This document shows positions 14,753 through 38,394 of a DNA stretch of 43,587 nucleotides, piece after piece. Position 1 is the stretch's first letter. Each line of letters begins with the position of its first letter. The DNA is from Escherichia phage K1G. The translations under genes and the position numbers were made by a program. The DNA lies in the sequence record NC_027993.1; one strand, 5' to 3'. Below the pieces are notes generated by a model. It saw only the letters and a list, made by a program, of their open reading frames with translations, was not told the origin of the DNA and searched no databases.

Positions 14753-14781
14753 ATAGTACCCTATTATATTGGGGTGTGCAA
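14753..14781 (-). promoter_or_regulatory. early-type promoter TTGCAC-N17-TACTAT (family 2) driving the antisense cassette
   Basis: minus-strand sequence cTTGCACaccccaatataatagggTACTATtcac nearly identical to + strand promoter at 37043; contains AATAG-N4-CTATT. Confidence 0.5.
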
Positions 14782-14889
14782 GTAATGTGATAGAATAAGT
14801 TTGCGCCTAGTGTCGCACACGAAAAGCGGGTGGTTCCCGTCTGGCGCATTTATCGTTAACCTGTAACCTCTTAACCAAAGGATTAAAGA

Positions 14890-15306
14890 ATGAAACTTTC
14901 TGATTTTTATTTCGAAGAGAAAGCACTGGTAGGCAAGAAGATGCCCATTCTGCTGCCAAACGGCGAAGACTCCGGTGAATGGCTTAACGTTGTAAGTCCC
15001 GATGCGGATGTCGCCGTTAAAGCGGGGCGTGCTTTCATTATTGCGTACCGTCGCGGGTTGGCGCGTTTCGAAGAACTGGAAAAAGCCGCCAAAGAATCCG
15101 GCGACTATACTGAATATAACCTGGCTATTAACGAACTGGCGGAAGACCTCAACCGGCAACTCGCGGCAGAAGTCGTAAACGGCTGGAGCTTTGATGAGCC
15201 TTTCTCTAAAGAAGCATTTAACAAATTGCTGGACCAGTTCAAGGCATTAGGCACACAGGTAGCAGCGTTCCATAACGCTGAGCGCAAAGCATTACAGGAA
15301 AAGTAG
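14890..15306 (+). CDS. tail assembly chaperone (G-like)
   Basis: 138-aa acidic ORF immediately upstream of tape measure gene; -1 frame ORF overlaps its 3' end. Confidence 0.55.
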   Translation: MKLSDFYFEEKALVGKKMPILLPNGEDSGEWLNVVSPDADVAVKAGRAFIIAYRRGLARFEELEKAAKESGDYTEYNLAINELAEDLNRQLAAEVVNGWSFDEPFSKEAFNKLLDQFKALGTQVAAFHNAERKALQEK

Positions 15307-15671
15307 ACGCGCTGTACAGGTTCGCCACCTATGAGTTTGTGGATAAGCATAAAATCAGAGAGTTTGATTCTATAGCCGACGGACACGAACAGGCGCTTAT
15401 CGCGATGGGTGTAATCGATAAGAAAAAACGTGCAGCGCGACGGGGTGGGCCAGAATGCCCGCCCCTTTTTATATCCACCTTCGAGACGTACTGCGACATT
15501 AAGTTTACGCGACACGTGCGCGAGGACGCTGTAGTATTGTTCGCAAGAGAATCCGTTACGTGGCAAGACCTGAAAGCCTATCTCGATGTTACGCAAAAAC
15601 AGCTTAGCCTGTTCGAGATAGACATTATCATGGGCTTAGAAGCAATCTTTGAAGGTAGAAATCATGGCTGA
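14890..15671 (+). CDS. putative G-T fusion via -1 frameshift near 15298-15304
   Basis: -1 frame is open from 15282 to 15671 and overlaps tape measure start; slippage candidate GAA AAG UAG (Lys tRNA AAG to AAA next to stop). Confidence 0.4.
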
Positions 15672-17937
15672 TACCGCTAGCTTGATCGTACGAGTATCAT
15701 CGACCGGCGTCGATAAAACCACATCACAACTGAACGGGCTTACCAAAGCCGCGGGGGCCGCCGCCGCTGCCGTTGTCAGTCTGGAAACTGCCAAACAGGT
15801 GTTCAGTGCGCTGGTGGACTCCCAGCGCAACTTCGATAAGCTGAACTCCGGCCTCATCACAATGACCGGGAGCGCCGAGAACGCTGCTAAGGCATTCAGC
15901 GTCCTGCAACAGTTCGCAAAAGAAACTCCGTATGGCCTCAATCAGGCGGTAGAGGGGTTTACCAAGCTCGTGGCGCTAGGTCTTAACCCCAGCAAAGAGG
16001 CGTTAATATCCTACGGCAACACCGCCGCAGCTATGGGCAAAGACCTTAACCAAATGATTGAGGCAGTTGCCGACGCCAGTACATTTGAATTTGAGCGCTT
16101 AAAAGAGTTCGGTATCAAGTCTTCCCAACAGGCGGATACAGTTTCGTTTACGTTCCGTGGCGTAACGACCACGGTTAAAAAGAACTCCGAAGAGATTCAG
16201 AAATACCTGCTAAATATCGGTAACACTGATTTCGCCGGAGCGATGGAGACGCGCTCGAAGACCTTAGATGGTCAGTTATCTAGCCTGGCGGACTCCTTCG
16301 ATGGTCTTGTTCTTGCGGTAGCGCAATCCGGTTTTGGCGACGCGGTAGGCGAACAAGCGGCAACAGCGGAAGATGCTATCACCGCACTCACCGACGCCAT
16401 CGCGTCCAATGAGATCTCCGCCACGCTCCAGGATTGGGTGACACTGTTCAATGAGTCGTTCAAGTTTATTTCTGATGCCCTGAATGACCTGGCATTCGAT
16501 ACCGAGGACAAATCCGTTGATATGTCCGACTCGCTGGGGGATATACCGGATGCCATCCGTGAGTGGTTGCCGGATATCCAGCAGACATTCCACGAGGTTA
16601 TTGCGTGGTTCCAGCGCATTGACGACTACGCGGTAGCGTTAGGCCAGACCCTTGCTGATGTGTTTGACCCGAGCAAAACGTCGGCGCTCACATTTAAAAA
16701 ACTGACTGCAGAGGCTGATGCCGCATACGACGCCAGTATAAAACGTGCAGAGGCCGAATCCCAAGCCATTACCGACAGGTCTAAGCAGCGTAAGAAAGAA
16801 ATTGAGGAACAGCGCAAGCAGTACGACGAGCGTAAGAAGCAAGAAATTGACTTAGCCAGCCTTGTTAATAAAAAGGGCGGAACTGGTGGGGTGGGGACAA
16901 CCGACGATAAAGCAGCAAAAGCCGCCGCCAAGAAAGCAGAGCAATTGCGGAATCAGGCGCAAGATTACCTCGACACTTTGGCCCGTCAGAACAACGACGA
17001 GTTAAAGGCTATCGACGCGCAGGAACAGCAGAAACTGGCTAAGGCAAAAGAGTTCTACAGCCAGGGCGCGTTGTCCCTGAAAGAATATGAACAAGCTAAA
17101 ACAGCTATCGTCCTCGAAGCCGGGCAAAAACGACAAGATGAACTGGATAAACGCCAGAAAGAAGCCCAGGAAAAGCAACAGAAAGGTGACGACTTCATGG
17201 CTCAGATTATGGGCCAGAACGCTACTGAGCTTGAGCTTCTCGACATCCAGGAACAGCAGAAGCTGGCGGTAGCAGATAAGTACCGTGAGCAGGGACTTAT
17301 TAGCGAGAAGCAGTATCAGGCCGCGCTTAACGCCATCAACGAGCAATACGCCACCAAGCGCGCCGACGCAACGGCAACCGCCTTCGGTAACATGGCCTCA
17401 AACATCGGGTCTGCGTTGGGTGAGGCTTCCGGCGCGTACAAAGCATTCGCTATTGTGCAGGCCACTATCGCCACGTACACCGCGGCTATTGAGGCGTACA
17501 AGTCTACGGCGGCTATCCCTGTTGTTGGCCCCTTTCTGGCTCCTGTAGCCGCTGCCGCTGCCGTTGGGGCGGGTATGGCGCAGATTTCCGCTATCAGGTC
17601 AGCACGTGAACAGGGCGGTCAGTTATCCGCGGGGCAGGCTTCTACTATCGCTGAACGTGGTAAACCCGAAGTTATCATGCCCGCTGGCGCATCGCGTGTG
17701 CGCACTGCACAGCAGATGAAAGAAATTATGGGGCAAAACGGGTCTTCCTCCGGCCCATCTAATGTTACCATTGTAAATAATACATCGAGTCAGATTGGCA
17801 ACGTATCCACCGAGCAGGATGATGAAGGCCGTCTGCGTATCATCATAGAAGAGCAAGTTGCTGCATCTTTGCAGAACAGCAACAGTAAGATTAGCAAGGC
17901 CCGCAAGGCCACAAGAAACGCGCCGGGGTTTAAATAA
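15649..17937 (+). CDS. tail tape measure protein
   Basis: 762 aa, Ala/Gln/Glu/Lys-rich coiled-coil, located after G/GT. Confidence 0.8.
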   Translation: MKVEIMADTASLIVRVSSTGVDKTTSQLNGLTKAAGAAAAAVVSLETAKQVFSALVDSQRNFDKLNSGLITMTGSAENAAKAFSVLQQFAKETPYGLNQAVEGFTKLVALGLNPSKEALISYGNTAAAMGKDLNQMIEAVADASTFEFERLKEFGIKSSQQADTVSFTFRGVTTTVKKNSEEIQKYLLNIGNTDFAGAMETRSKTLDGQLSSLADSFDGLVLAVAQSGFGDAVGEQAATAEDAITALTDAIASNEISATLQDWVTLFNESFKFISDALNDLAFDTEDKSVDMSDSLGDIPDAIREWLPDIQQTFHEVIAWFQRIDDYAVALGQTLADVFDPSKTSALTFKKLTAEADAAYDASIKRAEAESQAITDRSKQRKKEIEEQRKQYDERKKQEIDLASLVNKKGGTGGVGTTDDKAAKAAAKKAEQLRNQAQDYLDTLARQNNDELKAIDAQEQQKLAKAKEFYSQGALSLKEYEQAKTAIVLEAGQKRQDELDKRQKEAQEKQQKGDDFMAQIMGQNATELELLDIQEQQKLAVADKYREQGLISEKQYQAALNAINEQYATKRADATATAFGNMASNIGSALGEASGAYKAFAIVQATIATYTAAIEAYKSTAAIPVVGPFLAPVAAAAAVGAGMAQISAIRSAREQGGQLSAGQASTIAERGKPEVIMPAGASRVRTAQQMKEIMGQNGSSSGPSNVTIVNNTSSQIGNVSTEQDDEGRLRIIIEEQVAASLQNSNSKISKARKATRNAPGFK

Positions 17938-18437
17938 TGAGCGACTTATATTTCCCACGTAGCCTTAAGCCGGTGGTGTCGAAAGGCTATTCGATGACCA
18001 GACGCAACAACGTCTGGAGTGTTGATTTAGCTGGCGGCGGTGTACGTCAGGGGCGCGACACGTATTACGACGTGTTCCCGATAAGCGTAACCCTGATTAC
18101 CTCAGCGCTGGGGCGTCAGGCGTTTCTGTCGTTCCTCGAAAAAGTCGATGGTGGTGCGTCAAGTTTCTGGATGGCGCATGACTTCGGCATGGGTATTCAG
18201 GATTACCAAGTAACAATCACGTCAACCATCGCAGAGTCCACAGAAGACGGCATTAACTGGACGATTACTTTCACGGCAACCGCCGAGAAGTCACCGTTCC
18301 AGGACCTTGAGAACCAGTGCCTGATTAACAATCTGCCGGATTTGTTTGGTTGCTATGGTGACGGGCTGGGGTGTTTCCTTAAAGCCTACGGAACCGCGCA
18401 ATCAACGTTTCCACGAATTTGGGACCCGATGCAATGA
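17937..18437 (+). CDS. minor tail protein
   Basis: follows tape measure with TAATG overlap. Confidence 0.55.
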   Translation: MSDLYFPRSLKPVVSKGYSMTRRNNVWSVDLAGGGVRQGRDTYYDVFPISVTLITSALGRQAFLSFLEKVDGGASSFWMAHDFGMGIQDYQVTITSTIAESTEDGINWTITFTATAEKSPFQDLENQCLINNLPDLFGCYGDGLGCFLKAYGTAQSTFPRIWDPMQ

Positions 18438-18949
18438 GTCAGGAATCAGTAGAAGCAGCCTACCGCCGTAAGCTGGCGTCGAACCCAGATGGTGAGATGG
18501 ACTACATCACGTTGCAAATCAGCCACCCGTTGCTGTCAAAGACGTATTATCTTGTGCGCGGGCTACAGGAACTTACGGCAACACTGGAGACAGGCGAAAC
18601 AATAACATTCGAGCCAACCCCGATGGAGGCGTCGGGCGCGGCTAACAACAGTGACATGGACCAGACGACCACGTTTACTCTACCGGATATCCTCAATCAA
18701 CTTGATGATGAGATGGATAAAATCCCGATGAGTAACACCGAGTTGCCGAAGTTCGTATTTCGCCGTTACGTCAGCACCGACCTGTCTTACCCGGCTGACG
18801 GCCCGGTCGTGTACGAGTTACAGGCCATCAACCAGGAGAATGGCGAGTTCTCCGCAGATGTTGGTACACCTATGCTGAACCAACGAAGCACTGGTATACT
18901 GATGACACCTAAAGAGATACCGTTATTACGCGGCCTGTTGACCACATGA
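18434..18949 (+). CDS. minor tail protein
   Basis: ATGA overlap with upstream gene (track start 18419 is TTG). Confidence 0.55.
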   Translation: MSQESVEAAYRRKLASNPDGEMDYITLQISHPLLSKTYYLVRGLQELTATLETGETITFEPTPMEASGAANNSDMDQTTTFTLPDILNQLDDEMDKIPMSNTELPKFVFRRYVSTDLSYPADGPVVYELQAINQENGEFSADVGTPMLNQRSTGILMTPKEIPLLRGLLTT

Positions 18950-19311
18950 ATATTAACGACTACACGGGCATACCTTACGACTTTCGCAAGCGCAATTGCT
19001 GGCATCACGTGCGCATTGTCCGCGCGGATGCCGGGTTAGAAACCCCGGCGTTCGACGTCACAAGCCCAACGGCAATTAATGAAGCGTTCGACGAAGGACA
19101 TCGCAACACGAAGGGGCTTACGAAAATAGATAAGCCTGAAAACTTCTGTGCGGTGCTTATGGGGTATCGCCGTGGTGGTCGTATCGTGTGGCACGCAGGA
19201 GTATACTTCGACGGGATGGTTAGCCATTGCGAGCTTGCTTCTCGTCAGGTACGGCTTGACAGGCTGGCGGACCTCAGAGACACGTACACGGAGATTGAAT
19301 TTTGGCGATAA
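18946..19311 (+). CDS. tail assembly protein (gpK-like position)
   Basis: 121 aa with conserved Cys/His (RKRNCWHHV ... HAGVYFDGMVSHCE) suggestive of NlpC/P60-like fold. Confidence 0.5.
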   Translation: MNINDYTGIPYDFRKRNCWHHVRIVRADAGLETPAFDVTSPTAINEAFDEGHRNTKGLTKIDKPENFCAVLMGYRRGGRIVWHAGVYFDGMVSHCELASRQVRLDRLADLRDTYTEIEFWR

Positions 19312-21815
19312 TCCTGCACTACACGCGAAACGCTGATGGCGCTTTCGACCGTACAAAACACGTCGGGATGCCGATGGAGTTTGTCGTTAACCGTATCCCG
19401 GACGGCGTGCCGGTGCGCGTCTACCTCGGCGAAATTGGTGATGATACCGACGTAACTGACGACTTCGACGCACTCAAAGACGAAGACGCCGTGTACCACA
19501 TTATAGAGGGTGCTGGTAGCGGGGCGCTTGGTGCCGTTAGTAAGGTGTTCGGTTTTATCCTTAAGCCAATCGCTAAGTTGTTTGGTCTGAACATGTCCGC
19601 AAACGCCAACTATACGGCGACTAACAACCAGACAACATCACCAAATAACAGCCTCACAGACCGCTCAAACAAACCACGCCCTTACGAGCGCTCCTATGAC
19701 ATCTGCGGGACTGTGCAGACAATCCCTAACGACCTGATGCAGACGTATAAAGCGTTCAACTCCACGGGTGCTTTGCTGGAGTATTCGTATTATGACGCGG
19801 GGCGTGGGCATCTGCATATTGAGGCTGATGGCGTAACGGAAGGCGACACCCTGATAAGCGACATCACAGGTTCTTCTGTTGCCGTATACGCGCCGTATAC
19901 CTCCCCGAACAACACCACATCGCCGCAACTACAAATCGGCGACGTCATTGATCAGAAACTCTATGTGACATACTCCAACGACGACGTTGACGGTATTGTG
20001 CTGAAAGCGCCAAACGACATCGGAGCTAACCCAAGCTCCGACGGCACCGCCAAACGTATTTCAAACACCGGCTACATTTATGACCCGTCTGGTGATTCTG
20101 CTTTTTCTGAGTTTCTTAGCGTCGGTGATGTCGCGGTGCTGAGCAACTTTGACGTTGCTGATGTCACTAACCTGAACGGCTCGTTTGAGGTTTTATACGT
20201 TGACGACTTCGAAGTAAGATTAGCGGTAAACGGTGCGTCTAACTGGGCGGCGTTGACCAGCGGGCAGACGTACACGTTAACAGAGCGTTCAGATACGTTT
20301 ATGGGCCCGAGCAACACCTATGACGTATCCCTTACCGACTGGTATTACATGGTGCGCGGAGAAGTTGACCGAGTACTTGCTAACGTTGCCGGGCAGAACG
20401 GCCTCTACAAATACGACGGTGGCTATAATCGCACCAGCGTAACGGTAGAACTCCAGTACCAGATGATTGACTCTCGGCGCAACCCATTGAGCGATATTTA
20501 CACAGTACAGGCTACAATTACCGGTAATAGCACGGATTACGTCGGTACGTCTATCTACGGGCAATTGCCTACTGCATCGCGTTTCCGCGCCCGTATGCGC
20601 CGTATAACGAATTTTGATAAGGACTACAACGGTACAGTAAGCGACGAGATAACCTTCATCAACCTGTACGGGCAGTCGCTGGACACAACCCCACACTACG
20701 GCAACCGAACTACCGTGCATTGCGCACGTAAACAGACGCCGCGTGCCGCCAGTATCGACAACCCAGAACTGCGCATGATTGCGACCGAGATGTGTTACAA
20801 ATACCTCGGCAATGGGGTATTCGATACAGTAATGACGCCTAATACACAGGCGGTGCAGTCGCTAATCAGACTGGCGCGTGACCCGGCGGTTGGTAATCTG
20901 GAGCTGACAACGGCAAACATGGACAAGTTACTTGCTGTGCAGGAAGAGATTGAATCTTATTTTGGCAGCGAATTAGCCGGGCAATTCTGCTACACGTTCG
21001 ACGACTACGACACGACGATGCAGGACATTGTTCAGACCATAGCTGAAGCCGTGTTCTGTACTGCGTACCGTAAAGGCGCGGACATTATGCTGCGTTTCGA
21101 CCGTCCGGTTGCAGGGCCTGAAATGGTGTTCACCCACCGTAGTAAGACGACCGGTACGGAGAAATGGACACGCACGTTCAACGATTCTACGACCTACGAT
21201 AGCCTGTCGTTCTCGTACATCGACCCGGATACGAACGTACAGGAAACGATTTATATCCCGGAAGAACTCGGTGCAAACACTGAGGAGTACGAATCGAAGG
21301 GCGTGCGCAACTATCAGCAGGCGTACTGGCTGGCATGGCGTCGCTACCAGCGCAATGCGTTAAGTAAAGTTGTCGTAGAGTTCGAAGCTACCGAAGAGGG
21401 GGCACTCGCTACACCGGGCGGCGTAATCAGCGTGGTTAAAGGCTCACGCATCGCGCCGCAGGATGGTTATGTTGTTGCCGTTAACGGGCTTACGCTTACG
21501 CTGTCTCAGCCAGTTACGTTTACCCCCGGAGACGACCACTCCATCATCCTCAAGAAGCGCGATGGCTCTGTGCAGAGTATCTCGGTTATCAAAGGAAGCC
21601 ACGACCGCGAGGTGATTATGCTCTCCGCGCCGGAAGAAGCAATCTACACGGGGAATAGCGCGCTAAAAACTGAGTTTTCATTCGGCAACGAAGCAAGGCA
21701 TAATGCTCAGAAGATAGTTGTTTCTTCAATCGACCCGGGCGACGACCGCACGGTCAAGATTACTGGCTACAACTATGACGACGGATTCTATAAATACGAC
21801 GGCGTCGCGCCATAA
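19302..21815 (+). CDS. tail tip / central tail fibre protein (gpJ-like); start uncertain
   Basis: 837-aa ORF between tail assembly genes and tailspike. Confidence 0.65.
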   Translation: MAIILHYTRNADGAFDRTKHVGMPMEFVVNRIPDGVPVRVYLGEIGDDTDVTDDFDALKDEDAVYHIIEGAGSGALGAVSKVFGFILKPIAKLFGLNMSANANYTATNNQTTSPNNSLTDRSNKPRPYERSYDICGTVQTIPNDLMQTYKAFNSTGALLEYSYYDAGRGHLHIEADGVTEGDTLISDITGSSVAVYAPYTSPNNTTSPQLQIGDVIDQKLYVTYSNDDVDGIVLKAPNDIGANPSSDGTAKRISNTGYIYDPSGDSAFSEFLSVGDVAVLSNFDVADVTNLNGSFEVLYVDDFEVRLAVNGASNWAALTSGQTYTLTERSDTFMGPSNTYDVSLTDWYYMVRGEVDRVLANVAGQNGLYKYDGGYNRTSVTVELQYQMIDSRRNPLSDIYTVQATITGNSTDYVGTSIYGQLPTASRFRARMRRITNFDKDYNGTVSDEITFINLYGQSLDTTPHYGNRTTVHCARKQTPRAASIDNPELRMIATEMCYKYLGNGVFDTVMTPNTQAVQSLIRLARDPAVGNLELTTANMDKLLAVQEEIESYFGSELAGQFCYTFDDYDTTMQDIVQTIAEAVFCTAYRKGADIMLRFDRPVAGPEMVFTHRSKTTGTEKWTRTFNDSTTYDSLSFSYIDPDTNVQETIYIPEELGANTEEYESKGVRNYQQAYWLAWRRYQRNALSKVVVEFEATEEGALATPGGVISVVKGSRIAPQDGYVVAVNGLTLTLSQPVTFTPGDDHSIILKKRDGSVQSISVIKGSHDREVIMLSAPEEAIYTGNSALKTEFSFGNEARHNAQKIVVSSIDPGDDRTVKITGYNYDDGFYKYDGVAP

Positions 21816-21869
21816 GGCAGCGGTTTCTCCGATGGATTCAGCAATGGTTTTAATTAAAGAGGACTCTAT

Positions 21870-24824
21870 ATGTCAAGCGGATGTGGTGACGTTTTAAGCC
21901 TGGCGGATTTACAGACCGCCAAGAAGCACCAGATTTTTGAAGCCGAGGTTATCACGGGTAAATCCGGCGGAGTAGCCGGGGGCGCAGATATTGATTACGC
22001 GACAAACCAGGTTACAGGGCAGACCCAGAAGACACTACCTGCCGTGTTGCGTGACGCTGGTTTTAAACTGGCAGATTTTGATTTCACGTCAGGCGGTACA
22101 CTATCCGCTAACGACCGAAACACCGCAGTTTTGTGGCCGTCGTCCTCTGGCGGTGACGGGGATTGGTACTATTGGTTGGGTGCTCTACCAAAAATTATCC
22201 CGGCGTCATCTTCTCCGCAGTCCACCGGTGGCGTGGCAGATGGGGCGTGGCAGCCTGTCGGGTCGGTCATACTGCGGCAGCAAATATCTGATGTAAACGG
22301 TGCAATTCTGTACCCAGATTTACATGTGGCGCGATGGAAGGACGAATACGACCCGCGCGCATGGGGCGCCGTGGGCGACGGCGTAACTGATGATACTCAA
22401 TCTATTTTTAATGTATTAGCAGCTTCCCCCAACAATTGGATTATAGACGGCAGGGGTTTGACTTATAAAGTTTCCCAATTACCTGACATTAGTAAATTTA
22501 AGAATGCTGCATTCGTTTACGAGCGCGTAGCCGGGCAACCGCTTACTTATGTAGCTGATGGCTTCTTTAACGGTTCACTAACTAAGGTGACGGATACCCC
22601 GTTCTACAACGCATGGACGCAGGATAAAACTTTCGTCTACGACCATGTTATTTACGCCCCGTTTATGGCGGGCGAACGACATGGTGTTCAAAACTTACAT
22701 GTAGCTTGGGTTCGCTCTGGAGACGACGGGCAGACTTGGTCAATGCCTGAGTGGTTGACTCCAATCCATGCTGACTATAATGCTAGTGTTTCTACGGACA
22801 GAGTTAACTACCACTGCATGAGCATGGGTACGTGCGGCAACCGATTATATGCAGTTATAGAAACCCGCTACTTATCTAATATGCGGATGAAGAAGGCAGA
22901 ACTTTGGTCACGCCCAATGCCGTATTTTAGACACCCAACCGGCGGAATAACTATTAGTTCTGGCTCCACTACTGCTACCATTGTCATAGAAAATCATGGC
23001 CTAAAAGCAGGAGATGCGGTTAACTTCTCTAATACATCGGCAACTGGCGTATCGGGTAATATGACGGTTTCGTCTATAATTAACCGAAATACGTTCACTG
23101 TTACGCTCTCAAGCCCGGCGAGTTCCACCATAAACAATGCGGGTGTTACCTGGAACTTCGCAACGCGATTCTGGGACAGCCCGTGGGAAATTACCGAATT
23201 GCCTGGGGTAGCATACTCCACTAACGCTGATTTGTGTGTCACGGAGACACATAGTTTTGCGGTTATAGATGATGTTAACTACACTATCGCTGTCGGCTAT
23301 CACAACGGCGATGTGTCCCCTAGGCGTCTCGGTGTCTTGTATTTTAGTAACGTGTATGACAATCCTGGCGTATTCGTTCGTCGCACTGTCGCTCAGGCAT
23401 ACGCTGATAACGCTTCTGAGCCGTGCGTGAAAAGTTATGGTGGTGTGTTATACCTTACCACACGCGGCACATTACCTACTTCCCCTGGCTCTACACTGGC
23501 GATGAGCACCGATTCTGGGCAAAACTGGAGCTACTTGCGATTTCCGAACAATGTACATCACTCCAATCTTCCGTTCGCTAAAGTAGGTGACTATCTCTAC
23601 ATCTTTGGTACAGAACGTGCCTTTGGTGAGTGGGAAGGTGGCGAGCAGGACAGCCGCTATGAAGGTTCGTATCCGAGGACCTTTATGTGCAAAGTTAATG
23701 TGTCGTCCTGGCCTTCATCTTTAGATGATGTTCAGTGGTTTAATATTACCGACCAAATATACCAGGGTCATATCGTTAACTCTGCTGTCGGCGTCGGCTC
23801 GGTCTGTGTTAAAGATGGCTGGTTGTACTATATCTTTGGTGGGGAAGACTTCTTCTCTCCCTGGAGCATAGGGGATAACAGTGCGAAGTTATGGTACAAA
23901 CATGATGGGCATCCGGCTGACTTATATAGCTACCGGATAAAGATTGAAGACCACCCGTACGTATCACGTGATTTCAAATACGGAGCAACTCCTAACCGTA
24001 CAATACCTGTCGCCATGGGGGTAGATGGTGTACGCCATGTAGAAGCACCTTTAACGTTTGACAATGATGTAAGCGTGTACTCCCTGCATGTAACGGGGCT
24101 GGAATACGATGGTACACAACAGTCTGCCGTGCGCGCACGGTTTGATGGTGATTACGGGCTGATTTCAAAAACAGTCCCCACTAAAACCCCATCGGCTCAA
24201 AGACTGATAGTTAGCGGTGGTGATGGCGCATCCAGTTCCGATGGTGCGTTGCTGCAACTGTACGGGGCAAACCATGCAACGCCTAACAGGGCTATTATGT
24301 ATGCGTCAGGAGGCTTCTACTCATACAACAATTTCCTTCCTTACTTAGACTCGCAAGTGTCTTTAGGTTCGGCAGGTAATAGGTGGACTACGGTGTACGC
24401 GACCACCGGTACGATAAACACGTCTGATGGTACACTTAAGACGAACAAAGAGGAAATTGAGGGACAACTCCTTACCGCATGGGAAGATATACATGTAATA
24501 TCTTTTAAGTGGCTTGAAAGCCTAGCAATCAAGGGTGACACTGCAAGGATACACTTCGGTGTGATAGCCCAAGATGTGCGAGACATCTTGGTCAACCATG
24601 GGCTTATGGAGAAAGATTCTACCAGTTGTAAATATGCTTTCTTGTGCTACGACTCAATTGAAGCTGCGTATGATATTGATGAAGATGGCCAGACTGTACA
24701 AGTATCCCCTCCCGGCGGCAGATGGGGAGTTAGGGCGGACCAGATGTTCTTCATAGAGATTGCCTATCAGCGTAAGAAGATGCGCGAGTTCGAGAAGAGG
24801 CTGGCAGCACTAGAAGATAAATAA
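21870..24824 (+). CDS. endosialidase tailspike (endo-N-acetylneuraminidase) with C-terminal intramolecular chaperone domain
   Basis: 984 aa; Asp-box motifs SGDDGQTW and STDSGQNW; long stretches matching recalled K1F-type endosialidase (e.g. GDGVTDDT, NYHCMSMG, HNVHHSNLPFAKVGD, ARIHFGVIAQDVRD); RBS AAAGAGGA. Confidence 0.85.
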   Translation: MSSGCGDVLSLADLQTAKKHQIFEAEVITGKSGGVAGGADIDYATNQVTGQTQKTLPAVLRDAGFKLADFDFTSGGTLSANDRNTAVLWPSSSGGDGDWYYWLGALPKIIPASSSPQSTGGVADGAWQPVGSVILRQQISDVNGAILYPDLHVARWKDEYDPRAWGAVGDGVTDDTQSIFNVLAASPNNWIIDGRGLTYKVSQLPDISKFKNAAFVYERVAGQPLTYVADGFFNGSLTKVTDTPFYNAWTQDKTFVYDHVIYAPFMAGERHGVQNLHVAWVRSGDDGQTWSMPEWLTPIHADYNASVSTDRVNYHCMSMGTCGNRLYAVIETRYLSNMRMKKAELWSRPMPYFRHPTGGITISSGSTTATIVIENHGLKAGDAVNFSNTSATGVSGNMTVSSIINRNTFTVTLSSPASSTINNAGVTWNFATRFWDSPWEITELPGVAYSTNADLCVTETHSFAVIDDVNYTIAVGYHNGDVSPRRLGVLYFSNVYDNPGVFVRRTVAQAYADNASEPCVKSYGGVLYLTTRGTLPTSPGSTLAMSTDSGQNWSYLRFPNNVHHSNLPFAKVGDYLYIFGTERAFGEWEGGEQDSRYEGSYPRTFMCKVNVSSWPSSLDDVQWFNITDQIYQGHIVNSAVGVGSVCVKDGWLYYIFGGEDFFSPWSIGDNSAKLWYKHDGHPADLYSYRIKIEDHPYVSRDFKYGATPNRTIPVAMGVDGVRHVEAPLTFDNDVSVYSLHVTGLEYDGTQQSAVRARFDGDYGLISKTVPTKTPSAQRLIVSGGDGASSSDGALLQLYGANHATPNRAIMYASGGFYSYNNFLPYLDSQVSLGSAGNRWTTVYATTGTINTSDGTLKTNKEEIEGQLLTAWEDIHVISFKWLESLAIKGDTARIHFGVIAQDVRDILVNHGLMEKDSTSCKYAFLCYDSIEAAYDIDEDGQTVQVSPPGGRWGVRADQMFFIEIAYQRKKMREFEKRLAALEDK

Positions 24825-30446: not shown

Positions 30447-30460
30447 TATTTTTGACCCTT

Positions 30461-30486
30461 AGTAAAAAGGCCCAATGAAGGGCCTT
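30461..30486 (-). terminator. rho-independent terminator for leftward transcripts
   Basis: minus-strand AAGGCCC-UUCAUU-GGGCCUU followed by UUUAC. Confidence 0.6.
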
Positions 30487-30505
30487 AGTTAAATTGATTC
30501 AGATA

Positions 30506-31132: not shown

Positions 31133-31185
31133 CGTGATTTCTCGCTTTTCAGTTTACTCCGGGAACTGCCCGGCCAGTGATTAGA

Positions 31186-31214
31186 ACTATAATAGCTAAC
31201 TATTCGGGTGTCAA
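31186..31214 (-). promoter_or_regulatory. early promoter TTGACA-N17-TATAGT (family 1)
   Basis: minus strand TTGACAcccgAATAGTTAGCTATTATAGTT; near-palindromic AATAG-N4-CTATT. Confidence 0.6.
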
Positions 31215-31218
31215 CACT

Positions 31219-32469
31219 TTATTCCAAATCTTCTTCACTAACCTGATTCCACTCAGGACGTTTGTCGTCTGCCGTTGCGACACATGGTGCGCCTGGCTTA
31301 CGGGTAATAAACGGCTCAAGCGCTGCCATCTCATCCGCAGAAAGAACTTTTGCTGCCTCCGTAGGGGACATCAATACCTCTTTTTTGAGAATGTCGCCGT
31401 GTGACACTTCAATCGCATCGGCATCTTTCCACGCACGATTACCCAGGCGGCCTTCTACCAGTTTGTACCCTGGCACTTTATTACCGGAATGCAATGCGGC
31501 GGACATCGCTTTCTCAACCTTGTCGATGTGCTGGCGCAACAGCGGCAACTTCTCATACTCAACTACGAGTTGCTCCGTCGTCAGTTCCAGCACAAAGTCG
31601 TCTTCAAGTTCTTCCGCTAGTACAGAATTAACCGTCTTTGTACGCGCGGCACACTGTTCAGAGAACCGGCACCACTGGCAACCATCGACCGACGGTTTAA
31701 AGTCCGACGCTTTCAGGTTCTTCTTTCCACGGAAATAAGCATCAAGCGCTAACAGTGCCCGTTTCTGTGCGAACTTAGCGAACAGTTCCAGACCTTCGAC
31801 CGAGATGTCCCACTCTGACGCACCCCCCGCGTACGGCTGGAAGATGACCAGGCGCACTACTGTGATGTTATAACGTCTCTTGAGTCGGCGATAAACACCG
31901 AGAGCGTAAAGCATAAGCTGCTTGTTTTCTTTCGCTTCAACACGATGCCGTCCAGTTTTAAGGTCGCCAATAATGAGCATGTGCTCGTCGGTGTTCGCCA
32001 GTTCCTGGACAGCAACGAGGTCAGCCGTTCCGAACGTCTCGACACCTTCATACCCAGGATGCAATACCTCAGTAAGATTGACTCGCATTTCCAGCTTGGC
32101 GTAAGTCGCTACGTCGATAATCGCTTTGCAGTAGTCGGTGTACTTGCGCACCTGCTCAATCATGTCCGCCGTAATCAGTACCGCGCCTTTCATTGGGCTG
32201 ATTAGCGCCTTAATCTGGCCTTTACCTTCATCCAGCACGTAAGCGCCGACTTCACGCTCTAATGGCAGAGCAGTGCCTTTGATGTACTGGTTAAGGTGCA
32301 TCTCCGCTATGGTGTGGCATGCAGTCCCTGTAACGGCGGCTTTACCAGACGTGTTGGGAATATCTTTCTCACAGGCCAGTGATGCACTGCACGCCAGCCA
32401 CTTTTTAGCGCCAGACGGCGACAGTAAGGCGTGCACATCGTTATTGCCGCCGCGTTCCTTTAAAATCAT
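31219..32469 (-). CDS. Cas4/RecB-like PD-(D/E)xK exonuclease (DUF2800-like)
   Basis: N-terminal LLSPSGAKKWLACSA, nuclease motif IIGDLKTG...QLMLYA, C-terminal Cys cluster CQWCRFSEQC; ATG at 32469 with RBS GGGAGAG. Confidence 0.7.
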   Translation of the reverse strand: MILKERGGNNDVHALLSPSGAKKWLACSASLACEKDIPNTSGKAAVTGTACHTIAEMHLNQYIKGTALPLEREVGAYVLDEGKGQIKALISPMKGAVLITADMIEQVRKYTDYCKAIIDVATYAKLEMRVNLTEVLHPGYEGVETFGTADLVAVQELANTDEHMLIIGDLKTGRHRVEAKENKQLMLYALGVYRRLKRRYNITVVRLVIFQPYAGGASEWDISVEGLELFAKFAQKRALLALDAYFRGKKNLKASDFKPSVDGCQWCRFSEQCAARTKTVNSVLAEELEDDFVLELTTEQLVVEYEKLPLLRQHIDKVEKAMSAALHSGNKVPGYKLVEGRLGNRAWKDADAIEVSHGDILKKEVLMSPTEAAKVLSADEMAALEPFITRKPGAPCVATADDKRPEWNQVSEEDLE

Positions 32470-32738
32470 ACCCTGCTCTCCCACTGGTCAATTAAATGTC
32501 GTGTCTTATGGTCGCAGTGCATAGCCCAGCCATACATCGACTCGAAGACGTAAAAGTCCGGTTTGGCGAAAGTCGAGCGCTTAATATGTGACACGTGGCG
32601 GCCTATGTCTTTAGGCCGTGGCACTTTGCCTAAGTACGCCATATCTTCCATCTGGTGTGCACCGGACGGCGCACGCAATAACCATAGTGCCTCTGTGTTA
32701 TCCCGCCGGTCAACGGCGCGGTATAGTTGGTAAATCAT
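32466..32738 (-). CDS. hypothetical protein
   Basis: 90-aa ORF, stop overlaps exonuclease start. Confidence 0.5.
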   Translation of the reverse strand: MIYQLYRAVDRRDNTEALWLLRAPSGAHQMEDMAYLGKVPRPKDIGRHVSHIKRSTFAKPDFYVFESMYGWAMHCDHKTRHLIDQWESRV

Positions 32739-32781
32739 AATCCCGACCCTCAGTTAAAGCGGCCCGAAGGCCGCGGGATAG

Positions 32782-33303
32782 TTATTCTTCTTCGAAATAC
32801 TTGTTCTTGATTGCTGTCAGGCGCTCCAGATACTCAGCCAGGTCTTCGTCTTTAATCGCTGCAATCTTCATCTTCTTACCGGTAAACTCTTCCAGCAGTT
32901 CGTCAGAATCGTCGCACGCGGCATCGCTTGGGCCTTCGTTAATCGCATCGTCGATAGCCTGAATCTGGTCGCGCAGAGACTGGTAATCGACTTCTTCTTT
33001 CTCTTCTTCCGGCTCTGGCGTTGGTTCCTCTACTTTGTCCTTACGCGGCTTGCGCTTCGGCTTCTCTTCTTCTGCTGGTTTAGTGTCGACGATGTCTTCA
33101 CCTTCAACCGGGATTTCTTTCGCCTTCTCGACTTCTTCAAGTGCTTTAGCCAGTTCTTTTTTAACTGTCTCTACCCCAGTTACCGCGACGTCAACAGTCA
33201 ATTCACCTACAGATTTGCTAGTCGGTTGTTTCACACTGTTTGCAGCAATCAGTTCGTGGGCGACTACGAAACGTTCCAGTAATACCAAGAATTTCTCTAA
33301 CAT
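32782..33303 (-). CDS. acidic early protein
   Basis: 173 aa, strongly acidic C-terminal two thirds; strong RBS GAGGAGAG; first gene after promoter 33335-33363. Confidence 0.6.
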   Translation of the reverse strand: MLEKFLVLLERFVVAHELIAANSVKQPTSKSVGELTVDVAVTGVETVKKELAKALEEVEKAKEIPVEGEDIVDTKPAEEEKPKRKPRKDKVEEPTPEPEEEKEEVDYQSLRDQIQAIDDAINEGPSDAACDDSDELLEEFTGKKMKIAAIKDEDLAEYLERLTAIKNKYFEEE

Positions 33304-33334
33304 TTGTTTCTCTCCTCTCGTTTGGTATGGGCTA

Positions 33335-33363
33335 ACTATAATAGCGAACTATTCACTTGTCAA
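33335..33363 (-). promoter_or_regulatory. early promoter TTGACA-N17-TATAGT (family 1)
   Basis: minus strand TTGACAagtgAATAGTTCGCTATTATAGTT. Confidence 0.6.
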
Positions 33364-33427
33364 TGGGCTTTTCTAAAATAATTAATATGGTACTATTCAC
33401 ATATCAACTGACTAAGGAGTAATTGGC

Positions 33428-33643
33428 ATGCAACCATCTGAACTAGGTATCCGTGTAGAGCAACGCCGTAAAGAACTCGGTATCTCCCAGCGCCATCTGG
33501 CTGTCCTGGCCGGTGTTTCCCAAGGCGCGATTAACCAGCTGGCACTTGGGGTAACTCAGGACGTCCGCCCAGCGACGCTGTTTAAACTGGCGGAAGTGCT
33601 GCAAGTAGACGCCAAGTGGCTGGCGTTCGGTGAAGGGGCTTAA
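33428..33643 (+). CDS. XRE/Cro-type HTH transcriptional regulator
   Basis: 71 aa; HTH segment ISQRHLAVLAGVSQGAINQL; RBS AAGGAG; divergent from leftward early operon. Confidence 0.7.
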   Translation: MQPSELGIRVEQRRKELGISQRHLAVLAGVSQGAINQLALGVTQDVRPATLFKLAEVLQVDAKWLAFGEGA

Positions 33644-33660
33644 CGCCCCTTTCTTTTTAT
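33635..33660 (+). terminator. rho-independent terminator
   Basis: GGGGC-TTAAC-GCCCC hairpin followed by TTTCTTTTTAT. Confidence 0.7.
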
Positions 33661-33854
33661 TGCACCTTTATCGGGTATCTTTTGCGAAACTTACCTAACC
33701 CGCAGTATACGCTGTAAGCCTCTGTGTAACTGTACACAACATGATACCCGCGCCCGTAAGGAACTACGTTAAGAACTTCCACTACTTCGCCTCTGTGGTT
33801 GGTGTATTTATTACCTTTAAGTTCGTCGCTTACTTCTTTAAATTTACCGCTCAT
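33657..33854 (-). CDS. hypothetical protein
   Basis: 65-aa ORF, start overlaps primase-helicase stop. Confidence 0.5.
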   Translation of the reverse strand: MSGKFKEVSDELKGNKYTNHRGEVVEVLNVVPYGRGYHVVYSYTEAYSVYCGLGKFRKRYPIKVQ

Positions 33855-36118
33855 TCCAAATCCTCCTCTGTCACTGTCAGCATCTCATTCGGTTCATATA
33901 TTGTCTTCGGAATCTTGTTATCAGTTATCCGGGTGTTCAGCCTGTAACGGCCAGGGATTATCTGATTGTTTTCGTCAGTCCCCGGAACAAGATACCCAGC
34001 CTCAACCATTTTCTTAATCTTCCCGCGTTCTATGGCTTCTTTGGAGTTAAACGCCTTTGCATTGGGGTCAGACTGTGCGAGCTTATTAGCGGCGGCGACT
34101 GTGATGCCTTCGTTGCCGTTGTAGGTTCCTTCCGCCAGTTCAAACGCCGCCAGTATCGTGGCTTCTGAACTGTTGACGGCGTTCTCTATGGTTTTACGTA
34201 CGTTTTCTTTACCTTCTTTCGTCAACCCTTCTTCCCGCTCTTTCTCCTCGTCAGTCTTGAACGGCTCGAAACCCCACGGCATTAACACAAGTGCCTTATG
34301 CGGCTCCGGCAGGTCTAGGTTTACGATTGTGCCGTATTCCTCCGTGCTACCGAGGAACTCAACCGCACGGTACTCTTTCGGCGGCGGCGCTTCACGGAAC
34401 TGTACAGACTCCAGCACCATACCAACCGTCTTCTGTTGAGGCCCGTGCTTGAATTTCGAGTGGTATACATTTATCTGGCGGTCGGTAGCTCGTTCGATTG
34501 TCAGTTCCACGTCGACGCCAGCATACAGCGCCCCACTGCCACGGGCTTTCTTTCCGCCCTTCGGCGTATGGTGGACAACGCCTACCGCAGCTTTAGTCGC
34601 GTCACGTACTTCTTTCAGGATGGCGATAACCTTACCCATGCCGATTGCCGTTGATGAACTGTTCTCGTCGAACTTATCAATCGTCAGGGCTAGCGTCTGG
34701 TTGAGGGTGTCGAACGCAACCATGCCGATGGGTTCGTCACCCGCAGTTTCACGCATCAACTTAATCAGGCTTTTCAGTTTTCCGACTTCGCCCATGTCGA
34801 TGACATGTACATAATCTTTACCTTCCTCGCTATACTTAGCTGCGAGCGCATCGATACGGGTGCGTGTAGCTGCGCCGCCCTCACCGTCGATATAAAAATG
34901 GTGGCAACGCTGCGTATCTGCCCCCGCAAACCGGTATCCGGCGGCGCTCAGGTACATCATCCCCAGCGTATAGAACGATTTGTACGTGCCGGATTCCCCG
35001 ACAATATCCCAGATACAATCTGACGGCATGTACCCTTCAACGACGAAATCCGCCTTTACCGGTTCCGGTAACTCGTCATCCTCTGAGTCCTCGTCATCTT
35101 CCAGGTCGTCGAGGCTGCATGAAACAGATTCACGTGCACCCCATCCGATGGCCTCTGCGACTTCACTGAACGGCAGCCCCGTCGCATCGCACGCATACTT
35201 CCACACCTCTTTCGGTGACATGCCTTCGGTCGCCGTAATGTCAGTGTCGTGAATCATGGTTACGTTCGGCGCCTCATATCCCTCTCGCGGGAAGCACAGC
35301 AGGAAGTCATCCGGGCGCGGCGTCGGGTCGCTGTAGTTTTCTGCGTGTTCTGGCGTAGCTGGCATCTTAAGGCCTCGTGGCGTCATGATACCGCCATACT
35401 CGAACGCCAGTGCCTCGAACGCGTCGGTAAACGCGGTGCGCAGTTCTTCCGGTATCTGGTAATCCGATGCGCTGCTAACGTCAACGGCGGGGATGCCTTC
35501 CAGTAACTCGTCCGGGTCAATCAGGTCGTTGCGGCGTGACCAGATAACGGTAGAGCCAACCGGAGGCAGGTACATCGGTTGCGAAAGAGTGAACCCGCTG
35601 CGGTCAGCACCCATGCTTTTGAAGAAGTGTTCCAGCAATCCATGGCGAACACGGATGATGTCACCACCTTCGACCGGACGGGCCAGCGGCATGACGACGC
35701 GAAAGCGCGGGGACTCGTCGGTATGTGATGCCGTGGTATAGATACACATGCCCCGGCGGCTGCGTTTAACTAAGCGCACCGCTTCCTGATACTCTTCTGG
35801 TGTTGCGCTGTCGAAGTCCAGATACGCCAGCGACGATTTGCTTACAGACGCGTCACAGCGATAGAAAAAGCCTTTACGCGCTTGCTTAAAGTCGCCGGTT
35901 TCCGGGTCTTTTACAGTGCTGTGCGTCGAGTCGCACGCGGCGGTGATATAACCGGGCGCGGTCTTCGGGTTAATTCCGTCACGGACAGCATCGAGTGGCT
36001 GGATTAACTCTTTCAGGTCGTCCAGTGTTGCCGTGTGTGTGGTTCTGACGTTTATATCCTTTTTCTCAGCCCGCGCGTTGCGACGCGACCACGAGTAGGA
36101 TAAAATTACATCGGACAT
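33851..36118 (-). CDS. DNA primase/helicase (RecA-fold ATPase)
   Basis: 755 aa; Walker A-like GESGTYKSF, large N-terminal domain; RBS GAAGGAAA. Confidence 0.7.
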   Translation of the reverse strand: MSDVILSYSWSRRNARAEKKDINVRTTHTATLDDLKELIQPLDAVRDGINPKTAPGYITAACDSTHSTVKDPETGDFKQARKGFFYRCDASVSKSSLAYLDFDSATPEEYQEAVRLVKRSRRGMCIYTTASHTDESPRFRVVMPLARPVEGGDIIRVRHGLLEHFFKSMGADRSGFTLSQPMYLPPVGSTVIWSRRNDLIDPDELLEGIPAVDVSSASDYQIPEELRTAFTDAFEALAFEYGGIMTPRGLKMPATPEHAENYSDPTPRPDDFLLCFPREGYEAPNVTMIHDTDITATEGMSPKEVWKYACDATGLPFSEVAEAIGWGARESVSCSLDDLEDDEDSEDDELPEPVKADFVVEGYMPSDCIWDIVGESGTYKSFYTLGMMYLSAAGYRFAGADTQRCHHFYIDGEGGAATRTRIDALAAKYSEEGKDYVHVIDMGEVGKLKSLIKLMRETAGDEPIGMVAFDTLNQTLALTIDKFDENSSSTAIGMGKVIAILKEVRDATKAAVGVVHHTPKGGKKARGSGALYAGVDVELTIERATDRQINVYHSKFKHGPQQKTVGMVLESVQFREAPPPKEYRAVEFLGSTEEYGTIVNLDLPEPHKALVLMPWGFEPFKTDEEKEREEGLTKEGKENVRKTIENAVNSSEATILAAFELAEGTYNGNEGITVAAANKLAQSDPNAKAFNSKEAIERGKIKKMVEAGYLVPGTDENNQIIPGRYRLNTRITDNKIPKTIYEPNEMLTVTEEDLE

Positions 36119-36176
36119 GTTATATTTCCTTCAGCAAGTAATTTGGCCTCGGCGTTCACCGCGTCGGGGCTTTCTT

Positions 36177-36452
36177 TTATTCCAGGTCGCGGGAGATATT
36201 ACCCTCGGGCACCAACACTTTTCCAATACTTCTCGCTTTCTCTGTAATAGGCGTCGCTCTTGTTGCCCGATAAAACTTTCCTTTATTAAGAATCTCACCA
36301 TGTCGCTCGAGCACATCTAAAGCATGTTTGATCGGGTTTACACCGTAATTATCCAACCGGTATCTCCGAAGCCCGTCTACCGTAAAAGCGCCGTTCGCTT
36401 CGGTCAGTCTGCGTGCACACATTAATATGTGTTTCTGGAATTTAGTTAGCAT
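36177..36452 (-). CDS. hypothetical protein
   Basis: ATG at 36452 with RBS AAGGAG; overlaps 3' end of upstream HTH gene. Confidence 0.45.
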   Translation of the reverse strand: MLTKFQKHILMCARRLTEANGAFTVDGLRRYRLDNYGVNPIKHALDVLERHGEILNKGKFYRATRATPITEKARSIGKVLVPEGNISRDLE

Positions 36453-36621
36453 CTTTAACGTTCTCCTTAATCCACGCCTCCACAGTAGCGCGGTCAAAGG
36501 TACCTGGCTGACGGTAGCCGTTGATAACGCGGCAACACTCCGGGAACTTTCCTGACCGAAGCCAGCGATTAAGAGTCATAGGGGAAACCCCGATTAAGTC
36601 TGCTACTTCTTTCTGTGTCAT
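36442..36621 (-). CDS. AlpA/Xis-like HTH DNA-binding protein
   Basis: MTQKEVADLIGVSPMTLNRWLRSGKFP; ATG at 36621 with RBS GAGGG (track ORF begins at TTG 36651). Confidence 0.6.
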   Translation of the reverse strand: MTQKEVADLIGVSPMTLNRWLRSGKFPECCRVINGYRQPGTFDRATVEAWIKENVKDAN

Positions 36622-36778
36622 TTTACGCGCCCTCTCTATCAAGTGAAACAACTATAACACCTACAATAGACAAACACAACCTATTGACAAAATAAAATGT
36701 AGCTGTAAAATCAACGTATCGAATGGCTTTAGTTAAGAATTACTTAGAAACAATATTCTTAAGTCTCGGGTACTTAAA

Positions 36779-36798
36779 GCCCCGCCATAAAGCGGGGC
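36779..36798 (-). promoter_or_regulatory. leader hairpin, reverse-orientation copy of the 4618-4637 hairpin
   Basis: GCCCCGC-CATAAA-GCGGGGC on + strand equals reverse complement of the spanin leader hairpin. Confidence 0.35.
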
Positions 36799-37042
36799 GC
36801 TAAATAGTACTCTTGGTAACGTTAGTATCTAAGTTTCCTCAAAGTAACAGCAAGTGGCAAGAAAGCCCCCGTCTATTTAAATTTTACCCTCCTTCATAAG
36901 CCACTGATAATTAAAAGTTTCTATAGTTGCCGTAAACGTGGAAGAGAGTACTTCACTTCGCTGGGGTGGGCTAACGCCCACCCACTGCGTTGCGTACTCT
37001 TTTAAGAAACGAAAGAATCACAACGGCAACGTAACTATTCTC

Positions 37043-37071
37043 TTGCACACCCCAACATAATAGGATACTAT
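37043..37071 (+). promoter_or_regulatory. early promoter TTGCAC-N17-TACTAT (family 2)
   Basis: cTTGCACaccccaacatAATAGGATACTATTcac. Confidence 0.5.
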
Positions 37072-37096
37072 TCACTTATCGAAACGAGACAGAGGA

Positions 37097-37857: not shown

Positions 37858-38050
37858 GTGGATTAAGTGTAGTGAGATGCTGCCGGGTAATGGGTATACG
37901 GATAAAGAGTTCCTGGTGTATGAAACGTTAAATAACGCAGTTCAGCACGATTATTACATAGTTCCTGATGACGGGAGAAAGCCTTTCTGGAATCACTACG
38001 ATAAGTACGTGACGCACTGGATGCCGTTACCCGAGCCGCCAGAAGTGTGA
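37850..38050 (+). CDS. DUF551-like protein
   Basis: N-terminus MGEWIKCSEMLPGNG resembles DUF551 proteins (W-I...LP motif). Confidence 0.5.
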   Translation: MGEWIKCSEMLPGNGYTDKEFLVYETLNNAVQHDYYIVPDDGRKPFWNHYDKYVTHWMPLPEPPEV

Positions 38051-38184
38051 TGTTCAATAGTTTGGGATTTTACTGAGTGACTTACGCTGCTACACAGCAG
38101 CGTACAACTTTAACTTAGTGTCGTCAAAAGGCGACACTTTCATCAAACGCAACAATCGAAGCGACTATTGCAGGAGATGCAACA

Positions 38185-38358
38185 ATGATTACTAAAGAAC
38201 AGGCTGAACGACTAATCACGTTAATCGACACGATGGTTGATGCGAAAACCGATTTAGCAACGGCAACAGAGGAATCCGCTACCTGGTCGCTTGAAGAAAG
38301 AGAAGCAGAAGCGGAAAGGGAGTTACTGGCGTTCATCGACTCTATAACACACCAATAA
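38185..38358 (+). CDS. small acidic hypothetical protein (57 aa)
   Basis: RBS AGGAG 10 nt upstream of ATG. Confidence 0.45.
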   Translation: MITKEQAERLITLIDTMVDAKTDLATATEESATWSLEEREAEAERELLAFIDSITHQ

Positions 38359-38365
38359 AATTTAC

Positions 38366-38394
38366 TTGCACACTAAGATAGAATAGGCTACTAT
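38366..38394 (+). promoter_or_regulatory. early promoter TTGCAC-N17-TACTAT (family 2)
   Basis: cTTGCACactaagatagAATAGGCTACTATTcat. Confidence 0.5.

Follow-up and report, generated by a model that had tools for sequence, protein, structure and literature searches.

The operators of 434 Cro are 14-bp dyads with conserved outer bases, and morons, as reportedly described by Juhala and co-workers in 2000, are independently transcribed inserts in the late regions of phages. Features recalling both were found in the genome of Escherichia phage K1G (sequence record NC_027993.1), analyzed here as one window of 43,587 nucleotides, which BLAST against phage genomes identified as a complete Kagunavirus genome (Guernseyvirinae, K1G/K1H/K1ind group), collinear with K1ind2 from base 1 in the large terminase gene. 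The element in question is a 14-bp palindrome, AATAG-N4-CTATT, which judging from the sequence is common to nearly all recognizable promoters of this phage, including that of a four-gene antisense cassette lying within the structural genes. A phage-encoded 71-amino-acid Cro-like protein is its most likely, putative, binder. The positions of the motif have been tabulated before, as the genome papers of the phages Golestan (2020; PMC7203180, Table S4) and fBC-Eco01 (2023; PMC9825357, Table S2) used PHIRE to list the same 20-mer (TAATAGGnTACTATTCAC / tgAATAGTa-ccTATTat-T) as promoters at the same seven kinds of position, including those preceding two rightward gene blocks and the antisense cassette. 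These tables are repeat lists only, giving neither the -35 hexamer, the dyad symmetry and the two orientations nor a candidate regulator, and one of them (PMC9825357) labels the sites as promoters of a phage RNA polymerase, an enzyme that the phage does not encode. A full-text literature search for the motif strings returned no relevant paper, and we did not find the -35 hexamer, the dyad, its registers, its switch between genera or the Cro-like candidate described elsewhere.

A sequence-only reading of the window had pointed to a second promoter family, TTGCAC-N17-TACTAT, at three sites. The exact pattern was indeed found at these positions and nowhere else in the whole window, and 100 dinucleotide shuffles gave no copy. 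The alignment proposed at the time, cTTGCAC-N17-TACTATTCA(c/t)TTA, holds at 3/3 sites, all of which carry the extended consensus TACTATTCAyTTA, and the first two sites, said to differ at about 3 of 30 positions, are closer still, with 2 differences in 37 (CTTGCACACCCCAAyATAATAGGrTACTATTCACTTA). The three sites are as follows.

14753-14781, minus strand: P_imm, with the -35 TTGCAC at 14781-14776, a 17-bp spacer and the -10 TACTAT at 14758-14753; palindrome AATAGGGTACTATT at 14752-14765; predicted start A at 14746; faces Imm, with its ATG at 14722.
37043-37071, plus strand: P_37k, TTGCAC-N17-TACTAT; palindrome at 37059-37072; predicted start at about 37078; upstream of a 63-amino-acid open reading frame (ORF; ATG 37106), followed by the rightward small genes.
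38366-38394, plus strand: P_38k, TTGCAC-N17-TACTAT; palindrome at 38382-38395; predicted start at about 38401; upstream of a 62-amino-acid ORF (ATG 38426) and the genes leading to holin and endolysin.

All three sites point towards genes that have a Shine-Dalgarno sequence and, with the start predicted as the A 7 nt after the -10, the predicted leaders are 24-29 nt long. TTGnnn and TAnnnT at a 17-bp spacing are present at 3/3 sites, and more than 40 relatives retain the TTG and the TAnnnT. Neither the ORFs of the window nor three annotated relatives include an RNA polymerase or sigma gene, and the ORFs longer than 700 amino acids all encode tape measure, tail, tailspike, DNA polymerase or primase proteins; all transcription must thus rely on the host polymerase. 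The three sites are probably promoters recognized by the host sigma-70 RNA polymerase, and we give the whole reading, in which promoter, operator and Cro-like binder go together, a somewhat better than even chance. An alternative -10, TATAAT, in the spacer of the first site (ATCACA-N17-TATAAT) was discarded, as the second and third sites have no matching -35 in that register. The T4 MotA box, (a/t)(a/t)(a/t)TGCTTtA, is centred at -30 and takes the place of the -35. A MotA-dependent middle promoter of the T4 type was likewise discarded, since TTGCAC is located where a -35 is expected and a TGCTT box is absent (homologues of MotA and AsiA were not searched for).

The conserved core of these sites is the palindrome and not the hexamers. 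It was recognized because the centre of the three-site motif, read as its reverse complement, gives the fBC-Eco01 consensus, the core of which was then searched for. Six perfect copies of AATAG-N4-CTATT were found in the window against 0.04 expected from shuffles, and nine copies at up to one mismatch against 1.24 expected; no shuffle reached six and nine, respectively, which rules out a chance origin of the motif and the palindrome. All nine copies (9/9) adjoin promoter-like hexamers, and those outside the TTGCAC family are located as listed here.

33335-33363, minus strand: P_33k, TTGACA-N17-TATAGT, 11/12 of the consensus; palindrome at 33340-33353 in the spacer; upstream of a 173-amino-acid ORF and an exonuclease gene.
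31186-31214, minus strand: P_31k, TTGACA-N17-TATAGT; palindrome at 31191-31204; upstream of the block encoding a Gp2.5-like single-stranded DNA-binding protein (SSB) and DNA polymerase.
27632-27660, minus strand: P_27k, TTGACG-N17-TATAGT; palindrome at 27637-27650; overlaps the final codons of the VRR-NUC ORF; upstream of a 63-amino-acid ORF, a methyltransferase and a helicase gene.
33384-33397, plus strand: promoter of the Cro-like gene; weak palindrome AATATGGTACTATT with 1 mismatch, containing the -10 TACTAT (33391-33396) in the same TACTATTCA; no recognizable -35.
40925-40958, plus strand: P40930, candidate promoter of the packaging/structural operon, directly after a terminator; near-palindrome ACTAGTTGACTATT (one mismatch) at 40925-40938 over the -35 TTGACT; -10 TATATT at 40953-40958; conserved in Jerseyvirus as AATAGTTGACTAGT.
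4404-4437, plus strand: P4404, candidate spanin/scaffold/capsid promoter; near-palindrome AATAGTTGACTTTT (one mismatch) over the -35 TTGACT; -10 TAAGCT at 4432-4437.

The dyad of the TTGCAC family covers positions from about -19 to -6, its right half-site including the -10 (TACTAT-T). In the TTGACA family, formed by the three leftward promoters P_33k, P_31k and P_27k, which are also the three best sigma-70 matches in the region 24.7-34 kb, the dyad is located in the spacer at about -25 to -12, following the pattern TTGAC(A/G)-N4-[dyad]-ATAGT, and, relative to the direction of transcription, is flipped compared with the TTGCAC family. The TTGCAC set is hence not the independent second family that the sequence-only reading took it for, but one register of a palindrome that is also found at the replication promoters, the promoter of the Cro-like gene and two candidate late promoters. 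A resemblance to the E. coli trp operator, with its ACTAGT-type dyad, was considered and dropped, as the CTAG core is absent.

Two of these promoters are followed by structured leaders. P4404 precedes a leader of ~200 nt (4438-4640, plus strand), possibly an attenuator or a small RNA, whose end forms a strong hairpin of the terminator type (4619-4638) immediately ahead of the spanin ribosome-binding site. The leader of the SSB gene holds, shortly after P_31k, the hairpin CCGGGcagttCCCGG (~31145-31165, minus strand), which is conserved in the phages Ent1 and VSiA.

The palindrome was found at the syntenic promoters of all 29 Kagunavirus and 13 Jerseyvirus loci recovered through the 71-amino-acid gene, as well as in the complete genomes of K1ind2, fFiEco03 and Salmonella phage Ent1. 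Comparing the window with Ent1, a Jerseyvirus, at five orthologous promoters, 49/50 half-site positions are identical against 6/20 of the positions in the four central bases, and the flanks have diverged; among relatives in general, the centre occurs in many variants. The one-mismatch palindrome at the promoter of the Cro-like gene has the same form in all 29 Kagunavirus loci. Moreover, the sequence of the dyad stays constant, whether 4, 7, 10 or 11 bases separate it from the -35 or it covers the latter. Contacts made by RNA polymerase cannot explain the conservation of a dyad kept in varying register, and a dimeric DNA-binding protein can; the conserved spacers are best read as operator rather than promoter sequence.

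The genus Cornellvirus presents a related element. In VSiA, no AATAG-N4-CTATT was found at up to one mismatch, and TATTA-N6-TAATA (core ATTAn-N4-nTAAT; 6 matches, 0.78 expected) takes its place at the syntenic promoters, with the registers unchanged; this second palindrome shows no enrichment in the window. The change in the half-sites is symmetric, from A to T at position 2 and from T to A at the mirror position. Dhillonvirus, which has the replication and phosphoesterase genes in common with the group, has a homologous cassette promoter without any dyad, and carries neither of the two small helix-turn-helix (HTH) genes, which in the window are the following.

33428-33643, plus strand: Cro-like gene, 71 amino acids, HTH_3 (Cro/CI-type); monocistronic, with its own weak-dyad promoter and a terminator at 33632-33652.
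36442-36621, minus strand: HTH_17 (excisionase/BldC-like) gene, 59 amino acids; first gene of the leftward primase operon and the less likely source of the binder.

The 71-amino-acid protein belongs to Pfam HTH_3 (E=1e-11, 45 bits against a cut-off of 23), and its best solved relative by sequence is 434 Cro, also of 71 amino acids (E=5e-7). An AlphaFold2 model of the protein (pLDDT 86.7) has 2cro as its top Foldseek match (TM 0.76/0.83, 1.8 Å), and restriction-modification C-proteins are among its structural neighbours. The gene is embedded in the leftward replication block and diverges from P_33k, so that two dyads (33340 and 33384) are located 44 bp apart. The protein is present in Kagunavirus, Jerseyvirus and Cornellvirus. 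Neither a second, CI-like gene nor an integrase was found in the annotated relatives, and the divergent 173-amino-acid ORF has no Pfam match; the protein would thus work like Cro, with no lambdoid immunity region around it. Inspection of the DNA upstream of distant Cro-like homologues (33-48% identity, other phage types) for dyads gave nothing informative.

The operator may also be real and be bound by the 59-amino-acid HTH_17 protein, another small phage protein or a host factor, which we regard as unlikely. Nearest to the HTH_17 protein among solved structures is BldC, which binds direct repeats head-to-tail and not dyads. The distribution of HTH_17 does track that of the AATAG dyad, both occurring in Kagunavirus and Jerseyvirus and neither in Cornellvirus or Dhillonvirus, and the recognition helix of the Cro-like protein, discussed below, is out of step with the operator change. 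In the only time-course RNA sequencing (RNA-seq) study of a Kagunavirus, vB_Eco_K1B4, which was poorly synchronized, the HTH_17 homologue is also one of only four genes classed as 'early' (PMC12645636). However, two Kagunavirus contigs (L138 and L147), in which unrelated genes replace HTH_17, retain 3 and 6 perfect palindromes, and Cornellvirus has its related palindrome at the same promoters without HTH_17. Together with the binding mode of BldC, these cases favour the Cro-like protein, while a host factor would leave a lineage-specific switch between phages of the same hosts unexplained. The replacement genes (L138 3624-4209 and L147 12559-13144, minus strand) encode a 47-amino-acid CxxC...CxxC protein and a 149-amino-acid protein at the head of the primase operon. 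In VSiA (L124, 34354-37005), the Cro-like gene is followed by the primase/helicase gene on the same strand. As the latter is inverted relative to Kagunavirus and Jerseyvirus and placed behind the Cro-like gene, the divergent promoter region appears to be the main control point in Cornellvirus.

Based on these observations, we propose that the host polymerase would fire the dyad-bearing promoters upon phage entry, and that the dyad would be the operator of a phage-encoded dimeric HTH protein, most likely the 434-Cro-like one. As this protein accumulated, it would occupy the dyads over the -10 or the spacer; because these dyads cover core promoter DNA, its binding should keep RNA polymerase off. 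The consequence would be a joint damping of the replication operons, the antisense cassette and the rightward small genes, and the Cro-like protein would limit its own synthesis, more weakly, through the weakened dyad at its promoter.

Several points weigh against this proposal. The hexamers TTGCAC/TACTAT match the sigma-70 consensus TTGACA/TATAAT at only 3/6 and 4/6 positions (7/12 in total) and have no TG extension; a generic consensus scan did not list the three sites because 7/12 falls below its threshold of 9/12. No mapped 5' ends were found in the literature for any Guernseyvirinae phage. Kagunavirus and Jerseyvirus have the operator in common, yet the recognition helices of their Cro-like proteins differ (SQGAINQ and SQSLITH, respectively); the helix is more alike between Jerseyvirus and Cornellvirus (TQSAISH), whose operators differ; across the three genera, recognition-helix residues and operator changes show no clean covariation. 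Two candidate late promoters have a one-mismatch copy over their -35, on account of which the regulator may do more than shut off early genes. Finally, in the K1B4 RNA-seq data the class that peaks latest contains Imm, the methylase and DNA polymerase, and the 'middle' class contains the Cro-like, primase, capsid, tail and lysozyme genes (PMC12645636); such late peaks do not look like simple early shut-off. Because of the poor synchrony of that experiment, with phage reads of at most 8.9% and sampling to 120 min against a latent period of 30 min, we used these classes only for the co-clustering of genes: they separate Imm from the structural genes that surround it and group it with the dyad-bearing leftward operons.

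It is improbable that the sites are plain constitutive sigma-70 promoters without a dedicated regulator, in which the palindrome is a legacy of module duplication or recombination, or of -10 symmetry. The first and second sites also have the non-palindromic spacer ACCCCAAyAT in common, P_imm is identical to P_37k in some relatives, which suggests exchange, and the leader and first gene switch just past the promoter, as they do at mosaic joints. Such a legacy accounts poorly for half-sites that stay nearly invariant across genera while centre and flanks drift, for a palindrome held in four registers relative to the hexamers, for the dyad in the spacer of the TTGACA family, where RNA polymerase sets no such constraint, and for the symmetric alteration of both half-sites at all Cornellvirus sites.

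Quite improbable is a bound protein that acts as an activator or dual-function controller, like the C-proteins or lambda CI at OR2, and fires the weak TTGCAC/TACTAT promoters or switches divergent ones. The low match of these hexamers to the consensus and the missing -35 at the promoter of the Cro-like gene would fit such a role, as would the late rather than early peaks of Imm, DNA polymerase and methylase in K1B4, the C-proteins among the structural neighbours of the 71-amino-acid model, and the P_imm dyad, which would be located ~44.5 bp ahead of a possible start of the tail operon in the divergent direction. Yet a dyad centred at about -12.5 or -18.5, over the -10 or the spacer, is in a position that represses in every well-studied case, and the TTGACA-N17-TATAGT promoters are close to consensus and need no activator. 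That the sites serve an RNA polymerase or sigma factor of the phage itself, as in the two PHIRE-based genome papers that list the 20-mer as a 'phage (RNAP) promoter', is very improbable, given that no such gene was found, that the TTG-N17-TAnnnT geometry is ordinary and that PHIRE only finds repeated 20-mers.

The four genes of the antisense cassette behind P_imm, located between the tail tube and tail chaperone genes, are listed below; they were assigned from Pfam/PHROGs and the annotation of relatives.

12327-14722, minus strand: the whole cassette of four genes.
14531-14722, minus strand: Imm_superinfect (Pfam, E=7.5e-13).
13363-14493, minus strand: metallophosphoesterase.
12881-13366, minus strand: HAD PNKP-type phosphatase.
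12327-12881, minus strand: AAA_18 P-loop kinase.
12303-12322, both strands: bidirectional intrinsic terminator closing the cassette and the head/tail-tube operon.

These functions are ones that the phage needs before assembly, which fits co-regulation with the non-structural genes. Late antisense read-through, named in the sequence-only reading as the observation that would speak against a tie to the early regulon, is disfavoured by the cassette's own predicted P_imm and by the terminators: the leftward replication operon stops at 24829-24848 and cannot supply the cassette, which itself ends at 12303-12322. The tie of the cassette to an early regulon, claimed in the same reading, survives in part. 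The cassette forms one regulatory set with the rightward and replication genes, as judged from the shared promoter and palindrome, but the 'early' timing is not supported, Imm being in the latest-peaking class of the poorly synchronized K1B4 data. Both terminators consist of the same 20-nt GC hairpin (AAGGCCCCGTTTGGGGCCTT) in opposite orientations, and both copies sit where plus- and minus-strand operons converge.

More than 40 contigs retain the cassette promoter upstream of the metallophosphoesterase gene, including those with a different first gene. Four versions of the leader and first gene follow this promoter, diverging ~1-15 nt after TACTATTCAC (L177-L231); as the sequence diverges just past this point, the promoter appears to act as a mosaic recombination joint. 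The content of the cassette also differs in fFiEco03, Ent1 and VSiA. An extra antisense gene among the head genes was found in fFiEco03, Golestan and fBC-Eco01. It encodes a DNA polymerase III beta-clamp-like protein and has the promoter TTGCAn-N17-TACTAT with the dyad (L122 4896-4909 in fFiEco03, 'before ORF7' in Golestan and PP1/PP2 in fBC-Eco01), so that this arrangement recurs on antisense inserts.

Two further elements were observed on the opposite strand next to P_imm. A possible tail-operon promoter with an extended -10, TTGGGG-N16-TGaTAGAAT, is located at 14769-14796 (plus strand), divergent from P_imm; its ATAGAAT is conserved in Cornellvirus and not in the Jerseyvirus Ent1. Between P_imm and the tail assembly chaperone gene, a structured element at 14803-14847 (plus strand) consists of an outer stem, GCGCC/GGCGC, and two inner hairpins, with compensatory changes in 4/14 pairs among Kagunavirus, Jerseyvirus and Cornellvirus and no Rfam match. 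It may be the leader of the tail operon.

The remaining layout of the genome is summarized below.

1-12298, plus strand: head and tail-tube genes.
14890-24824, plus strand: tail genes.
24987-36621, minus strand: replication genes.
36652-37042: non-coding stretch of 390 bp between the leftward replication block and the rightward small genes.
37106 onward, plus strand: small genes, lysis genes and small terminase.

The non-coding stretch contains back-to-back promoters with overlapping -35s, namely TTGACA-N16-TAAAAT on the plus strand (36684-36711) and TTGTCA-N16-TATTGT on the minus strand (36690-36663), the latter heading the HTH_17/primase operon. It also has GC hairpins at 36771-36806 and 36962-36985 and no dyad, and may hold immediate-early promoters and/or a replication origin. 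Rfam and tRNA scans of the window gave no matches. Serratia phage eta has only structural genes in common with the group, and its paper is silent on this region.

A more far-reaching version of the proposal, which is a speculative idea that we think unlikely to hold in full, would make the single 71-amino-acid Cro-like protein the master timer of an obligately lytic siphophage family, acting through one operator in four registers at nine promoters. The cassette, rightward and replication promoters would be shut and the late ones handled differently, P_imm could have a dual position like that of lambda OR2, and operator and protein specificity would have been switched together in Cornellvirus (half-site position 2, A to T).

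Guernseyvirinae such as Kagunavirus and Jerseyvirus are widely used therapy and biocontrol phages whose transcription programme has hardly been studied. A single operator shared by nine promoters, combined with a plausible regulator of the Cro type, provides a concrete and testable wiring diagram, and would explain how an antisense cassette for superinfection immunity and end healing can have its own expression inside the structural genes. It also corrects the label 'phage RNA polymerase promoter' in the literature, and phage engineering could make use of a compact pair of repressor and operator, of which Cornellvirus offers a natural specificity variant.

By analogy, the type of control would be of a known kind, Cro-type repression of sigma-70 promoters, and not a new mechanism. 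As in phages 434 and lambda, a 71-amino-acid, five-helix HTH_3 protein goes with 14-bp dyads that have conserved outer bases and a free centre, operators lie over promoters, a weaker copy is found at the regulator's own promoter, and two operators are located in the divergent region. Unlike 434 and lambda, the phage is obligately lytic, with neither a CI partner nor an integrase, and its operators are scattered over nine promoters instead of being clustered in threes at two sites. The half-site is AATAG as opposed to the ACAA of 434, and its binding by the 71-amino-acid protein is predicted. The restriction-modification C-proteins are similar in being small HTH_3 dimers that act on promoter dyads in timed, concentration-dependent control; C-boxes, however, are paired sites at one promoter with an activating site, whereas single dyads lie here over the -10 or spacer of many promoters. 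Like a moron, the cassette has its own promoter and terminator, is placed on the opposite strand between conserved late genes and varies in content among relatives. It differs from morons in that its position and promoter are conserved across the subfamily, and in that this promoter would be part of the phage's operator regulon and not autonomous.

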